DNA of 5,153 bases from IMG/VR virus record IMGVR_UViG_2671181026_000008. One strand, written 5' to 3'. The DNA comes from a virus (lineage: Duplodnaviria; Heunggongvirae; Uroviricota; Caudoviricetes). Made by a program: the position numbers and the translations under genes. Below are positions 435 to 5,153 of the stretch, piece by piece (within the stretch, counting starts at the first letter, position 1; each line of letters begins with the position of its first letter). The notes below the pieces were generated by a model. That model did not search any database. It saw nothing but the letters and a program-made list of their open reading frames with translations, and was not told where the DNA came from.

Positions 435-770
435 ATGAAGTGGATTGTGATTGATACAGTTATCCAGCCATCATGCGGAATATCTTTTTCAGTCATATGG
501 AGTAAAATAAAATTAATAATCTGGTATCAATCGGATGCTTTCTTACCTCCTGAAAGTATATTTACACTGACTCACACAGGCATCATGCTCAATAACAAAG
601 TGCTACCTGTAACCATTTACAACGTAGTACCATTCAATAAAACATTCTGGAATTCAATCAAAAATAGCCAGGAATGCCCTACAAATACAGATAACGTATT
701 GAATGAATGCTTTAATAACCGTTGCACTCTGCAAATATGTCCTTATGGACTAAAACAACAAAGTCCATAA
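435..770 (+). CDS. Hypothetical 111-aa protein encoded in an AT-rich segment; Cys-rich C-terminal part
   Basis: ORF from the track. AAGGAAA Shine-Dalgarno about 6 nt upstream of the ATG. No competing ORF on either strand across 190-800. AT-rich codon usage unlike the flanks. No recognisable family. Confidence 0.35.
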
Positions 771-1025: not shown

Positions 1026-1217
1026 ATTTCTCCCGCTAACTGATACCCGGCTAACAGTCTGGCGTTTTCTTTTTCAGCAACGGGAAAGCAACAACCACCA
1101 CACCCGCCACCAGCACACCGTCAGCCAGCACTGACATTATCCGGCTGCTGCAATGCCATTCACAAAAACAGTAAGCAATCACTTTTTACCGTAACAGGTG
1201 ATAATCCAGATATGTAT

Positions 1218-1571
1218 CTACCCCAGATGAGTAATCCGAAGTTCATCCATACCACAGGTCCTGGCTATTCTGTTGTACTCCTGAACAAGAGCAAATAATT
1301 CTGAATTAGCAACCATGAACTCATCGCAAACCCTCTGTATAGCATCACTATTCAGAATAATAACGTCTCTTCCCGAAAGACGATCAGGAGTACAGAACAA
1401 AACTGTCAAACGGCTGAAGGCCTTTGCTCGTGCTGCATTGACTATATCAATACGCTGCCTAAGGATGAAACACCCCGACGCCTCATCAATATTCACTCTA
1501 CCCACACCATATGAATGATAAATATTTAATGCTGAAAAAACCATTAGACCGTATAACAAACACTCAATCAA
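1218..1571 (-). CDS. Hypothetical protein (117 aa from a TTG start; 108 aa from the first ATG at 1544), unrecognised family, sitting downstream of the tRNA array on the minus strand
   Basis: ORF from the track with a protein-like composition and hydrophobic N-terminus. It lies in a 655-bp segment (about 1027-1681) present only in copy 1. Weak point: no convincing Shine-Dalgarno before either candidate start. Confidence 0.3.
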   Translation of the reverse strand: MIECLLYGLMVFSALNIYHSYGVGRVNIDEASGCFILRQRIDIVNAARAKAFSRLTVLFCTPDRLSGRDVIILNSDAIQRVCDEFMVANSELFALVQEYNRIARTCGMDELRITHLG

Positions 1572-1758: not shown

Positions 1759-1771
1759 TGAATACCGATAA

Positions 1772-1851
1772 TGGACCGCCATCGGGGACCCGCCCCCGCA
1801 CCAACAACCCTGTTATCGTGTCGTCTGCTCTTCCTGATAAGCTAATGGCGG
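1772..1851 (-). pseudogene. Degenerate tRNA-like sequence: acceptor stem, D-arm and encoded CCA retained, but the anticodon-arm-to-T-loop core replaced by non-canonical sequence
   Basis: Flanks are identical to the tRNA-Arg(UCG) at 3281-3357 (CCGCCAT...ATGGCGG-T-CCA), but the internal ~43 bp differ completely. No anticodon stem-loop can be drawn, and the only T-arm-like hairpin (CGGGG-GCGGGT-CCCCG) has a 6-nt loop without the TTC motif. Confidence 0.5.
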
Positions 1852-1858
1852 TTTGTGA

Positions 1859-2119: not shown

Positions 2120-2748
2120 CAAACCGAGTCACCAAAGCGACTACGAACTCGAACCACAATCTGCCAGTTGCGCCAAATCTGCTGAACCAGACGTTCGCTC
2201 CTACAGCACCAAATCAGGTCTGGGTGGCGGACCTGACGTATGTTGCCACACAGGAGGGATGGTTGTACCTCGCTGGCATCAAAGATGTTTATACGTGCGA
2301 AATTGTCGGCTACGCCATGGGAGAGCGCATGACAAAAGAGCTGACAGGTAAAGCCCTGTTTATGGCGCTCAGGAGCCAGCGCCCACCTGCCGGGCTAATC
2401 CACCACTCTGATCGAGGTTCACAGTACTGCGCATACGATTACCGGGTCATACAGGAGCAGTCTGGTCTGAAAACATCAATGTCGCGTAAAGGTAACTGTT
2501 ACGACAACGCTCCGATGGAAAGCTTCTGGGGAACGCTGAAAAATGAGAGCCTGAGCCACTATCGTTTTAATAACCGGGATGAAGCCATCTCAGTAATACG
2601 GGAATACATTGAGATTTTCTACAATCGTCAGCGTCGTCACTCTCGTCTGGGGAATATCTCCCCGGCAGCCTTCAGGGAAAAATATCATCAGATGGCTGCT
2701 TAAAAAAAGAACAAATGGTAGTGTCCGCTATTGCCAGTACACCTCAGG
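2120..2748 (+). mobile_element. IS3-family insertion sequence remnant, 5'-truncated (no OrfA, no left end), intact right terminus
   Basis: Contains the C-terminal part of a DDE transposase OrfB. The element ends ...CACCTCAGG at 2748; on the other strand the terminus reads TGAGGTGTACTGGCAATAGCGGACAC, similar to IS3-type inverted repeats as I recall them. The left boundary is approximate, because repeat F extends to at least 2111. Confidence 0.8.
2122..2703 (+). pseudogene. IS3-family transposase OrfB, C-terminal fragment (DDE integrase core)
   Basis: In-frame translation gives TTNSNHNLPVAPNLLNQTF...PNQVWVADLTYV...HSDRGSQY...NCYDNAPMESFW...RRHS, the hallmark IS3 OrfB motifs including the D, D, E catalytic residues. 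The N-terminal third and OrfA are absent. The track ORF 2224..2703 starts at an internal GTG. Confidence 0.8.
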
Positions 2749-2946
2749 ATAGCGGTCATGTGATGCCGGTTTCCCGGTAACTCAGCACCGGTATCTGAGT
2801 CAACGTTTTCTCTACTGGGTCATTTCCGATACGCCCTGCCTGCTGACAGGCTTTCATCACATCTGAAAATATAGCACCCTGACTGATACTGTAGTACCTA
2901 AGGTTCCAGAAACTGTGATGTATCCGGCACAGAAAAGCCCCTCCGG

Positions 2947-3158
2947 AGAGGGCTGGAGAGTGGCGCTATGTGCCATTGCATGATGCCGGGTGCCTCCCGG
3001 TGAATTCAGTACCAGCACCTGAATCCGCGATTATCCCATATACCTACTCGCTGATTGCCCCTCCGCACAGGGGGATTCACCATGCCAGTTTCTTTTAACA
3101 AACTCCCCGCAAAACAGACAACTGTCAACCGTCTGAATTGTGAGACATTTAAAAAAAA
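2947..3158. repeat. Dispersed repeat C, copy 2 (near-identical to 807-1025); hairpin at 2947-2963 preceded by AAAA on plus, so a possible weak minus-strand terminator
   Basis: Direct sequence comparison with 807-1025. In this copy the segment directly abuts the tRNA-Arg(UCU) at 3191. Confidence 0.8.
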
Positions 3159-3190
3159 GGCCCGCAAAAGCGAGCCAGGGAAAATAAGTG

Positions 3191-3267
3191 TGGCGCGTTG
3201 TACTGGATTCGAACCAGTGACCGATTGCTTAGAAGGCAATTGCTCTGTCCGGCTGAGCTAACAACGC
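3191..3267 (-). tRNA. tRNA-Arg (anticodon UCU), 77 nt
   Basis: Same cloverleaf as 1682-1758, with one substitution that turns the G-U acceptor pair into A-U. Anticodon loop CTTCTAA. Confidence 0.85.
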
Positions 3268-3280
3268 ATGATGCAGATAA

Positions 3281-3357
3281 TGGACCGCCATCGGGGACTT
3301 GAACCCCGCGCAGCCAGCTTCGAAGGCTGGCGCTCTTTCCTGATGAGCTAATGGCGG
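3281..3357 (-). tRNA. tRNA-Arg (anticodon UCG), 77 nt
   Basis: Reverse complement folds canonically: acceptor CCGCCAT/ATGGCGG, D-stem GCTC/GAGC, anticodon stem CCAGC/GCTGG, loop CTTCGAA, T-arm CGGGG-TTCAAGT-CCCCG, discriminator T, encoded CCA. Confidence 0.8.
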
Positions 3358-3364
3358 TATGTGA

Positions 3365-3440
3365 TGGTGGCCCTTGCTGGATTTGAACCAGCGACCTGGC
3401 GATTATGAGTCGCTCGCTCTCACCACTGAGCTAAAGGGCC
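3365..3440 (-). tRNA. ileZ: tRNA with CAU anticodon, ileX/ileZ-like (tRNA-Ile2), 76 nt
   Basis: Identical to 1859-1934. Anticodon loop CTCATAA, T-loop TTCAAAT, encoded CCA. Confidence 0.85.
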
Positions 3441-3480
3441 GGGAGCCGCATAATAACGACGCGTAATTAATTCTTCAATA

Positions 3481-4539
3481 TCATCCGTTCTGGCTGACTA
3501 AATCCTGTACTTCCCGAACCGTCTGCTCAAAACGTTCAGTCTCCAGCTCAACGCCAATTGCACGACGCCCGAGCGCCAGTGCCGCTTTCACTGTCGAACC
3601 CAACCCCATGAAAAAATCTGCAATCAGGTCACCCGGACGACTGCTAGCGCTGATTATCTGCTGCAGCATTTCTGCCGGTTTTTCGCACGGATGTTTCCCG
3701 GGATAGAACTGCACCGGTTTATGCGTCCACACATCGGTATACGGCACCTGCACCGTCACGCCAAAATACCGCCGCAGATGTTTATATTCACTCAGCAGCT
3801 CCGCATACTGCCGGTTCAGTGAGGTATACGTATCCACCAGCTGGTGGTGGAGCTTTTCCAGTTCACCACGCCGATGCTTCTCTTCTGCCACCCGGGCAAA
3901 CAGCGCCTGTAATTTCAGATAATCGCTTTCATTCGGCAACTGCCACTGACCGGCACTGAACCAGTGCGACACCATGTTTTTCTTTCCTGTGGCATCTGCA
4001 ATCTGTTTTGCCGTTATCCCCAGGGCAGCTCGCGCATCACGAAAGTAAGAAATCAGCGGGGCCATCACATGCTGTTTCAGTGCACTGCCCTTCGCCGCAT
4101 ACCCGGCATCTTTCGGACGATACGGCCCCTGATAATGTTCCGCGAACAGAATGCGCTCTGTGGCGGGGAAATACGCCCGCAGGCTTTCCTTGTTGCATCC
4201 GTTCCAGCGTCCGGACGGCTTCGCCCAGATAATATGGTTCAGCACACTGAAGCGTTCACGCATCATGATTTCGATATCAGATGCCAGGCGATGACCACAG
4301 AACAGGTAAAGACTTCCGGCAGGTTTCAGCACCCGCCAGAACTGCGCCAGACACTGGTCCAGCCACTTCAGGTAATCATCGTCGCCCTTCCACTGGTTAT
4401 CCCAGCCCTCAGGCTTCACTTTAAAGTACGGCGGGTCCGTGACTATCAGGTCAACAGAATTTTCGGGTAACGACCGGATAAATTCCAGGCAGTCGGCGTT
4501 GATTAACTCACAACTGGATATTTTTACAGTATTAAGCAT
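3481..4539 (-). CDS. DNA methyltransferase, beta-class amino-MTase (N6-adenine or N4-cytosine), no cognate restriction endonuclease in the window
   Basis: 352-aa ORF. Catalytic motif IV DPPY (LIVTDPPYF) lies near the N-terminus and the AdoMet motif I FxGxG (DFFMGLGST) near the C-terminus, the circularly permuted order that defines beta-class amino-MTases. ATG at 4537-4539 is immediately preceded by an in-frame TGA. Shine-Dalgarno is weak. Confidence 0.9.
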   Translation of the reverse strand: MLNTVKISSCELINADCLEFIRSLPENSVDLIVTDPPYFKVKPEGWDNQWKGDDDYLKWLDQCLAQFWRVLKPAGSLYLFCGHRLASDIEIMMRERFSVLNHIIWAKPSGRWNGCNKESLRAYFPATERILFAEHYQGPYRPKDAGYAAKGSALKQHVMAPLISYFRDARAALGITAKQIADATGKKNMVSHWFSAGQWQLPNESDYLKLQALFARVAEEKHRRGELEKLHHQLVDTYTSLNRQYAELLSEYKHLRRYFGVTVQVPYTDVWTHKPVQFYPGKHPCEKPAEMLQQIISASSRPGDLIADFFMGLGSTVKAALALGRRAIGVELETERFEQTVREVQDLVSQNG

Positions 4540-4675
4540 GGATCATTAAGCCTGTCTCTGATAGGCTCATTCTGCTTTTGCGCAAAGCAGTGGGCCTGAG
4601 GTTTGCTTGTGAACCCAACGCATGAGCAGATGGCTGGTGGGTGCCCCTAACACCCACCAGCCGCCCATTTACCAC

Positions 4676-4703
4676 AAATAAAAAAGCCTTCACTGCGGAA
4701 GGC
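4676..4703 (-). terminator. Rho-independent terminator on the minus strand, overlapping the stop codon of the 65-aa ORF
   Basis: Hairpin GCCTTC-ACTGCG-GAAGGC (plus 4686-4703) followed on the minus strand by TTTTTTATTT (plus 4676-4685). Confidence 0.5.
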
Positions 4704-4887
4704 GTCTGTAACAACCGAACTGATAGTCTGCCAGACCCGCCATAACCAGCTGGGTCAGTATTAACTGGCAGCGTTCGCGTGAAAGGTAAGTATTCTGCGC
4801 TATCTCCCCGACTGTCGCCGGTTCGGTAACGCTTAATTCATTAAACACCACTCTGGCGGTTTCTGTCATATCCTGCTGTTTTAGCAT
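4690..4887 (-). CDS. Small (65 aa) putative winged-helix/HTH DNA-binding protein, unassigned family
   Basis: ORF with a good Shine-Dalgarno (AAGGAAAAG, about 6 nt before the ATG at 4885-4887). The segment TVGEIAQNTYLSRERCQLILTQLVMAGL has the hydrophobic/polar pattern of a helix-turn-helix recognition region. Bracketed by intrinsic terminators on both sides. Confidence 0.45.
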   Translation of the reverse strand: MLKQQDMTETARVVFNELSVTEPATVGEIAQNTYLSRERCQLILTQLVMAGLADYQFGCYRRLPQ

Positions 4888-5005
4888 GTCTTTTCCTTTT
4901 CCGGTTAACGTGACACACCAATAACTCTTGTCGAAAAAGCCAGCAAGCTGAAAGACAGGTATTCACCGCCACCAGCGCGTTTACTGTACTGACGCGATTT
5001 CAGTC

Positions 5006-5029
5006 ATAAAAAACCCGCTCGGCGGCGGG
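5006..5029 (-). terminator. Rho-independent terminator (tR'-like), second copy
   Basis: Same hairpin CCCGC...GCGGG (plus 5014-5029) followed on the minus strand by six T (plus A-run 5008-5013). Part of repeat F2 (5008-5153), which matches 1974-2111. Confidence 0.5.
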
Positions 5030-5074
5030 TTGTAGAAACTCTTCTAACGTCAGGCATAAAACGCCCATCGTTAT

Positions 5075-5110
5075 GACGAATTTACCACAGATTCCGGAAA
5101 AATCAACCTT
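5075..5110 (-). promoter_or_regulatory. pR'-like sigma70 promoter, second copy
   Basis: Minus-strand -35 TTGATT (complement of 5101-5106), 16-bp spacer, -10 TAAATT (complement of 5079-5084). This copy has an 8-bp tandem duplication (TTGTTACC/TAGTTACC) just upstream of the -35. Confidence 0.3.
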
Positions 5111-5153
5111 GTTACCTAGTTACCTTTTTTAACTGCCGCTCAGCCCATGCTTC

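Follow-up and report, generated by a model that had tools for sequence, protein, structure and literature searches.

The stretch analysed here, referred to as the window, comprises 5,153 nt of the IMG/VR virus record IMGVR_UViG_2671181026_000008 (Caudoviricetes), and its features were read on the minus strand, from position 5153 downwards. In this direction, the 3' end of a Q antiterminator gene is followed by a pR'-like late promoter, the intrinsic terminator tR', a gene for a small protein with a predicted winged-helix fold, a terminator-like hairpin, a putatively structured leader and the gene of an orphan adenine DNA methyltransferase (MTase) of the M.EcoGII family, behind which a tRNA cluster is located (Table 1). 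The two protein genes with their leader are called the cassette in the following. They belong to the late region designated copy 2, and a second late region at 48–2135, designated copy 1, is devoid of them. Very probably, the cassette occupies the first slot of a Q-dependent late operon in a lambdoid prophage resembling Shiga toxin (Stx) phages, here degraded, in which the methylase would be kept off in the lysogen and made late, with a protective role.

Table 1 Features of the window, listed in reading direction
Feature	Position	Strand	Basis and remarks
Q antiterminator gene, 3' end (last 13 codons + TAA)	5112..5153	-	Sequence reading; runs off the window; stop at 5114-5112
pR'-like late promoter	5079..5106	-	-35 TTGATT 5106-5101, 16-nt spacer, extended -10 TGgTAAATT 5087-5079, then AACGAT -10-like element
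tR' intrinsic terminator (AACCCGCCGCCGAGCGGGTT + TTTTTTAT)	5005..5031 (hairpin 5031-5012)	-	Terminator scan and junction analysis; T-tract is one cassette boundary
65-aa winged-helix protein gene (PHROG 331)	4690..4887	-	Open reading frame; database label 'TrmB family'
Terminator-like hairpin GCCTTC-CGCAGT-GAAGGC + TTTTTTATTT	4677..4703 (hairpin 4703-4686)	-	Terminator scan; loop contains the TGA stop of the small reading frame
Putative structured 5' leader of the MTase, ~140 nt	4537..4678	-	Folding, pair counts, covariance model
M.EcoGII-family beta-class orphan N6-adenine DNA MTase, 352 aa	3481..4539	-	
MTase codon 313, TTG (Leu), motif I FFMG-L-GST	3601..3603	-	Ser in all relatives
ileZ-argN-argO-type tRNA cluster	3191..3440	-	Ile2-type CAT 3365-3440, Arg-TCG 3281-3357, Arg-TCT 3191-3267; context, outside the cassette
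Terminator-like site after the tRNAs	3176-3159	-	
STnc100-family RNAs, one per copy	796-985 and 2925-3114		Minus strand; Rfam 132 and 124 bits, gathering score 47; downstream of the tRNAs
IS600 sequence	1-47 and 2136-2747 (612 bp)		100% identical to IS600 copies on Shigella plasmids

In the Shigella sonnei loci that are 100% identical to positions 2136–5153, Q is a 273-aa protein of the Antiterm family PF03589 with the same end point. The promoter behind it resembles lambda pR' (TAAATT as -10 element, AACGATGGG downstream); it was absent from the list returned by the consensus promoter scan, having 8 of 12 hexamer matches at a tool cut-off of 9. The hairpin of tR' recurs in copy 1 at 1972–1995. 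The terminator scan of 3100–5153 gave 5 terminator-like sites, compared with 1.9 expected from shuffles. According to the preliminary description of this DNA, which had been made from the letters alone, each of the two genes was followed or preceded by terminators; this held for tR' upstream of the small open reading frame (ORF) and for the hairpin at its stop, but none of the sites detected in the scan lay directly after the MTase gene. From the interval between pR' and tR' (5005–5079, minus strand), a short RNA of about 65 nt would be transcribed constitutively, similar to lambda 6S RNA or the StxS short RNA of Stx phages; the corresponding distance in the Stx phages of PMC7547250 is 258 nt. 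Rfam matches of this interval to isrK (16 bits) and to a Trp leader were sub-threshold and were treated as chance hairpin matches.

The MTase matched the Pfam profile PF01555 (N6_N4_Mtase) with E = 7.9e-42 and 144 bits at a gathering score of 26.7, residues 29–340 being aligned to positions 1–219 of the 221 profile positions. The motifs follow the beta-class order, with DPPY (35–38) N-terminal, the target recognition domain (TRD) central and FFMGLG, corresponding to FxGxG, C-terminal (309–314), in agreement with the DPPY amino-methyltransferase proposed in the preliminary description. The likeness to M.EcoGII, put forward there, was likewise confirmed: 324 of 349 residues (93%) are identical over the full length, the M.EcoGII sequence being taken from Suppl. 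Table S1 of PMC11551740, a machine-read text with a few evident reading errors, so that the true identity may be slightly higher. Identity is 95% to the MTase of phage 1720a-02 and 98% to an Escherichia coli prophage MTase. By sequence, the enzyme is thus a member of the M.EcoGII family and of the beta class, and both the family and its setting were already known. It shares with M.EcoGII as well as M.EcoGI the beta-class order, the prophage origin and the absence of a nuclease partner, and differs from both by S313L in motif I and by G197. The C-termini of M.EcoGII (349 aa, ending in DLIV) and of the window MTase (352 aa, ending in DLVSQNG) also differ, the latter being like that of phage 1720a-02. 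Residues 8–114 and 281–343 were aligned to solved beta-class MTases (M.RsrI 1eg2, CcrM 6pbd, M.MboIIA 1g60 and 9c3u/8urk) with E-values of 1e-14 to 7e-25; for the central 160 residues, i.e. TRD and linker, no sequence match was found in the Protein Data Bank (PDB), and the 2026 copy of the PDB contained no close relative of the enzyme. As of the SUPREM paper of 2024, no solved structure of M.EcoGII had been reported (PMC11551740).

M.EcoGII has been described as a beta-class member of a very large E. coli prophage family, with the MTase of phage 1720a-02 as a near relative (Murray et al. 2018, PMC5778455). M.EcoGII and M.EcoGI are the non-specific adenine MTases of prophages of E. coli O104:H4 C227-11; M.EcoGII methylates adenine in any context, is unexpressed in the native lysogen and is deleterious when expressed (PMC5778455). 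Homologs of 92–93% identity in O111 strains have been catalogued as 'nonspecific', with no signal in the methylome of the lysogen, and a M.EcoGI homolog in ST131 was silent by reverse-transcription PCR (PMC4659465). By analogy with these close relatives, non-specific activity, which in enzymes of this type extends to DNA, ssDNA and RNA, silence in the lysogen and toxicity may be ascribed to the family member in the window. The accounts of M.EcoGII and M.EcoGI consulted here do not describe the placement behind Q, pR' and tR', the upstream winged-helix gene or the leader.

A restriction nuclease gene was found neither in the window nor within 10 kb on either side in 8 S. sonnei loci with an identical MTase; these flanks contain hok, DUF968, RusA, Q, IS600 and IS1 copies, a NanS-p-type esterase, holin and tail-fibre assembly genes. 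The enzyme was therefore classified as an orphan, as had been proposed from the window alone, now with the search extended beyond its edges.

For the placement of the family, 80 loci were compared, one genome per species, with MTases 61–96% identical and hosts ranging from Escherichia to Xenorhabdus, Photorhabdus, Providencia and Morganella. Among ten diverse Enterobacterales loci, Q lies directly upstream of the cassette in 8, belonging to three Pfam families (PF06323, PF06530 and PF03589), and holin or endolysin genes lie directly downstream in 7. In E. coli and Stx2 phages the order is Q, small ORF, MTase, tRNAs, then stx or other morons, and lysis genes. Irrespective of the type of Q, the cassette hence takes up the late operon's first slot, and in Stx phages this slot is taken by stx. 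The 'DNA methylase' of Stx2-converting phages (1720a-02, Stx2a_WGPS2, phiP27 and others) has the same gene order behind Q, and the stretch from small ORF over leader and MTase to the tRNAs is 87–95% identical in nucleotides over 98–100% of the query. What follows is different: in the window, the downstream cargo consists of the tRNAs, an STnc100-like RNA and IS600, and the prophage is defective, whereas the Stx2-converting phages carry stx. A eukaryote-like Ser/Thr protein kinase gene was observed beside the cassette in the same late-operon slot in some relatives (L154, Providencia, 5186–5935; L174, 3650–5154); L174 has a PP2C phosphatase gene in addition.

The borders of the cassette were derived from two repeat families between the copies, D2 (1831–1974 = 3337–3480, 94%) and D3 (1965–2083 = 4999–5117, 96%), the stretch between which is missing from copy 1. 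The segment specific to copy 2 spans 3481–5008 (1,528 bp), whereby 3 nt ('ata') common to both joints leave the junction ambiguous; the segment 3481–5007 given in the preliminary description was thus correct to within 1 nt. On the minus strand, the first base of the cassette comes right after the T-tract of tR' and the last base is the end of the MTase stop codon. In copy 1 the T-tract of tR' passes directly into the spacer before ileZ. When cassette plus tRNAs were used as a query, 286 phage records matched, 21 of them over at least 80% of the query length; these cassette-bearing phages, at least 21 records with 87–95% identity, are mostly Stx2-converting and include 1720a-02 and phiP27. Cassette-less phages, namely mEp460_ev081 and several vB_EcoS phages, are 96% identical across the joint of tR' and ileZ. 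The cassette is accordingly a presence/absence module. Since both arrangements occur in free phages, an insertion is indistinguishable from a deletion in the other lineage, and copy 1 may just as well have lost the cassette as copy 2 gained it; the direction implied by calling the segment an insert was not sustained. The tRNAs were considered as members of the cassette and rejected, as they follow the MTase only in Escherichia-type loci.

The small ORF is a real gene. Its 65-aa product belongs to PHROG 331 (E = 1.4e-37), to which PHROG assigns no function, and 334 relatives are found in databases, from Escherichia, Shigella, Salmonella, Klebsiella, Citrobacter and Buttiauxella. An AlphaFold (AF2) model from 27 sequences reached a predicted local distance difference test score (pLDDT) of 88.4, with helices at 7–17, 26–33 and 37–49 and strands at 53–56 and 59–62. 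Three helices and a beta-hairpin wing make up the predicted topology, which is that of a winged helix, and Foldseek gave template modelling (TM) scores of about 0.8 to the winged-helix domains of IclR, PcaR and MarR, with Rrf2-type regulators also matched; the winged helix-turn-helix assignment of the preliminary description thus gained the support of a predicted fold. Foldseek further matched the N-terminal domains by which O-methyltransferases dimerise and the winged helices with which SelB binds RNA in SelB-SECIS complexes. Because winged helices among the top matches also serve dimerisation or RNA binding, the fold alone leaves the ligand of the 65-aa protein unfixed. The database label 'TrmB family' (PF01978) was not supported, the score being 18.0 bits (E = 0.0026) at a Pfam cut-off of 25.6, and NCBIfam and PADLOC gave no match to defence or regulator families. 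Database versions of the protein (e.g. P0017, P0031 and P0051) are often 94–106 aa long, gene callers having taken upstream in-frame starts. The upstream stretch used by these versions lies in another frame in the window (4841–4972, minus strand), and the homologs of other genera all begin with MLKQ or MLNQ, at this same Met; by this comparison, the real protein is the form of 63–65 aa.

A homolog of the small protein, down to 39% identity, is encoded 90–200 nt upstream of the MTase on the same strand in 60 of the 76 MTase loci with enough upstream sequence. In 66 of 68 viral contigs with a near-identical small ORF, the MTase follows 154–155 nt downstream. A link of the small protein to the MTase is well supported by these gene neighbourhoods; a role as regulator is not.

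Directly ahead of the MTase, the DNA of the leader is better conserved than the flanking genes, with a mean column identity of 83% across genera whose MTases are 62–80% identical, and about 140 nt are retained there also in the 16 loci that are without the small ORF. The leader of the window folds with a minimum free energy of -72.7 kcal/mol (z = -3.65). In the proposed structure, P1 is an 18-bp hairpin with its core at 4632–4662, P2 is a long-range helix (GRUCA-c-AAGCG / CGCUU-ac-UGAUC) with a 3' strand that ends 4 nt before the AUG, and P4a/b is an inner hairpin. This structure was drawn by hand and then tested by pair counts on 37 distinct sequences. In the drawn register, 93.5% of the cells pair in the standard manner, compared with 31–43% when the partners were slid by 1–3 columns; 11 pairs were changed on both sides, compared with 4.2 ± 1.4 in shuffles, and 0 of 500 shuffles reached 11. 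The surplus of G-U over A-C cells (105 vs 18) indicates that the MTase-sense strand is the folded one. With a covariance model built from the alignment, one hit was obtained per locus, always abutting the MTase start. Full-length hits numbered 50 in the 86 loci examined; they ranged from Escherichia to Providencia and Morganella and also came from loci without the winged-helix gene. The only further hits were a truncated remnant in L021, a contig with the small ORF and without the MTase, and a weak one of 29.8 bits in L095, located some 800 nt further upstream. The leader of Xenorhabdus and Photorhabdus is a shorter variant that retains a P1-like hairpin. No purine-rich Shine-Dalgarno sequence was found before the MTase AUG. 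In 27 of the 43 long-leader loci, the leader is preceded by a hairpin whose tail is rich in T (5 or more T in 10 nt).

Other explanations of the leader were considered. Rfam 15 contains no family that matched it at the gathering score and none that was convincing at E-values up to 10; the best sub-threshold match, to P26 (24 bits vs 36), lay on the opposite (plus) strand and was treated as a chance hairpin match. An upstream coding ORF or translational coupling was rejected as the main explanation, as open frames differ between loci and the substitutions are compensatory instead of three-periodic; for the ATGA overlap seen in some genera, it is possible. Convincing promoter hexamers were found neither by eye nor by scan.

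Taken as a genuine functional RNA element, which we consider to have about an even chance of being correct, the leader would probably act as a translational brake that complements the two terminators. We tentatively propose, with slightly less confidence than that, that the leader, the preceding terminator-like hairpin and, in most loci, the winged-helix gene form a cis-regulatory unit not described before, which would serve as a safety lock, or as a switch, acting post-transcriptionally on a toxic, sequence-independent methylase.

Within the late operon, the cassette would then be controlled as follows. In lysogens of Stx phages, PR' is active constitutively, and termination occurs at tR' (PMC7547250). 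As in lambda and Stx late control, where Q acts at pR' and tR', Q is followed here by a pR'-like promoter and an intrinsic terminator, and the cassette comes immediately after these; from this position and the constitutive, tR'-terminated PR' of the Stx phages we infer a Q-dependent late expression. Together with the published silence and toxicity of relatives, this makes the late reading put forward in the preliminary description a natural one. In the lysogen, transcripts from a constitutive pR' would end at tR'; RNA that is read through would next encounter a second terminator-like hairpin, the one in which the small ORF ends; and in any residual MTase mRNA, the bases just upstream of the AUG would be paired in the leader helix, so that a toxic, sequence-independent methylase would stay off by a presumptive triple lock. 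Upon induction, Q would render RNA polymerase resistant to termination, and the cassette would be transcribed with the lysis and morphogenesis genes. The MTase may then methylate adenines of progeny DNA regardless of sequence and may shield it from the restriction systems of the next host. The winged-helix protein would have a part in this at most as a candidate.

Several observations weigh against parts of this reading. Unrelated ORFs replace the winged-helix gene in 16 of the 76 MTase loci, so the gene is not needed for the MTase. The T-tract of the hairpin after the small ORF is poor in roughly a third of the long-leader loci. RNAalifold, when unaided, gave a poor consensus of the leader with a covariation term of -0.3 and recovered only part of the structure; the covariation support is real but modest, as the structure was drawn by hand from the same sequences, which are 83% identical on average. 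As to the enzyme, the approximately 25 differences from M.EcoGII are located mostly at residues 148–278, i.e. in the central TRD and linker, and its specificity need not be retained. Position 313 is the second x of motif I FxGxG, the S-adenosylmethionine (AdoMet)-binding loop, and is Ser in 134 of 134 relatives, so that the allele of the window may be impaired, with activity reduced or lost (hypomorph or dead). The prophage around the cassette is fragmentary, and its Q might never be expressed.

A nuclease gene just outside the window, with which the MTase would make up a Type II restriction-modification system, is extremely improbable: the best PADLOC model for the enzyme does carry the label 'Type II methyltransferase', but the 10-kb flanks of the identical loci are without a restriction nuclease, and in the ten diverse loci the MTase has Q and lysis genes as neighbours. 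That the MTase is instead an orphan which recognises a defined sequence and acts epigenetically in the host, as Dam and CcrM do, was considered very unlikely. The clustering of differences from M.EcoGII in the central region, which is expected to contact DNA, would be in line with it, as would partial matches to CcrM and Dam-type models; these are outweighed by the 93–98% identity to enzymes characterised or catalogued as non-specific, by NCBIfam scores far under the equivalog cut-offs for CcrM and YhdJ-type enzymes, and by the position behind tR' in the late operon, which speaks against expression in normal growth. Concerning the neighbouring gene, the winged-helix protein might be a dedicated controller of the MTase, binding DNA or the leader RNA and timing or limiting synthesis in the manner of the controller (C) proteins. 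The synteny is tight in spite of divergence (in the 60 loci, identity falls as low as 39% for the small protein and 61% for the MTase), the predicted fold is suitable, and some winged-helix domains bind RNA, the SelB-SECIS complexes being among the Foldseek matches. The C-protein systems, too, have a small protein with a DNA-binding fold, encoded in the same orientation immediately ahead of a modification gene that is harmful if mistimed. C proteins of restriction-modification systems are, however, of the Xre-type helix-turn-helix and not winged helices; the window has neither a nuclease gene nor a C-box-like palindrome, no operator-like palindrome or inverted repeat being found between tR' and the start codon of the small ORF, and an assignment to the C-protein class was rejected on these grounds. 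The 16 loci that keep leader and MTase without the small gene, together with the sub-threshold TrmB score and the missing defence or regulator match, further make a dedicated controller unlikely, although less so than the two preceding alternatives.

The strongest competitor is that the MTase is a decaying, functionally dead remnant, S313L having abolished or crippled AdoMet binding, and that the cassette just persists in a cryptic Shigella prophage. It agrees with the preferred reading of a silenced, late-expressed M.EcoGII-family enzyme on gene identity and differs only on whether the gene still works. In an alignment of 134 unique relatives (61–97% identical), the MTase departs from the at least 90% consensus at three positions, G197, I306 and L313. 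S313L corresponds to a single C-to-T transition (TCG to TTG, window 3603–3601), by which the family-typical motif I F-x-G-S/T-G-S/T-T is lost, Phe and both Gly being retained. G197 is a second, lineage-specific change, Ser being present in 127 of 134 relatives. The exact protein was found in about 1000 contigs, all of them Shigella records, so S313L does not stem from a sequencing error. The Leu at an otherwise invariant position, the restriction of the allele to Shigella and the disruption of the prophage by IS600 and IS1 favour a dead gene, and selection against leaky toxic expression may even have favoured S313L. On the other hand, the ORF is of full length with DPPY and the Gly residues of FxGxG intact, the allele is identical in the approximately 1000 contigs without accumulating frameshifts, and leader, small ORF, Q and tR' are all intact. 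On balance we regard a dead remnant as a serious contender that is nevertheless rather improbable. Given S313L at an invariant motif I position and the degraded prophage, protection of any DNA by this particular allele is doubtful.

M.EcoGII is sold as a reagent for the footprinting of chromatin and RNA, its prophage origin and its silence in the lysogen are published, and a further copy adds little in itself. The accounts consulted leave the switching of the family at 'presumably switched on at induction', and the anatomy of the cassette, with the Q/pR'/tR' slot, a second hairpin, a potentially buried start codon and the winged-helix gene, offers a concrete account of how a toxic promiscuous methylase could be kept off and then switched on. 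With S313L, a naturally occurring change at an otherwise invariant residue of the AdoMet motif is fixed in Shigella; this allele could show how a host or prophage disarms such an enzyme.

Although termed copies in the preliminary description, the two late regions did not arise by recent duplication. Positions 2136–5153 are 100% identical to S. sonnei chromosomes, where they form a prophage remnant adjoining ompW, while positions 45–1973 match, with 98.9% identity, a different prophage, found in an E. coli strain. According to these identities, the window consists of two different lambdoid late regions brought side by side via IS600. The IS600 junction at 2135/2136 was seen in none of the loci compared, and IS600 has probably mediated this rearrangement in a Shigella genome other than those compared. 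The S. sonnei prophage around the cassette is cryptic and contains several IS600 and IS1 copies; terminase and capsid genes were not seen nearby.

Copy 1 contains a truncated Q gene, pR'/tR', ileZ, argO, a PHROG-2873 ORF, a DUF3927 ORF, an STnc100 RNA, iraM and the start of a DUF1737 esterase gene. An internally truncated IS600 interrupts this Q gene at about 2135. The cargo includes a homolog of the anti-adaptor IraM (435–770, plus strand; NCBIfam, E = 4.7e-48), a DUF3927/TciB-like ORF of 43 aa (1051–1182, minus strand) and the ORF of PHROG 2873 (1218–1571, minus strand), a family without assigned function. The middle tRNA of copy 1 (Arg-TCG, argN; 1759–1858, minus strand) was called by neither ARAGORN nor Rfam, though its flanks resemble those in copy 2, and is probably degenerate or deleted; a related E. 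coli locus (L001) likewise has two tRNAs only.

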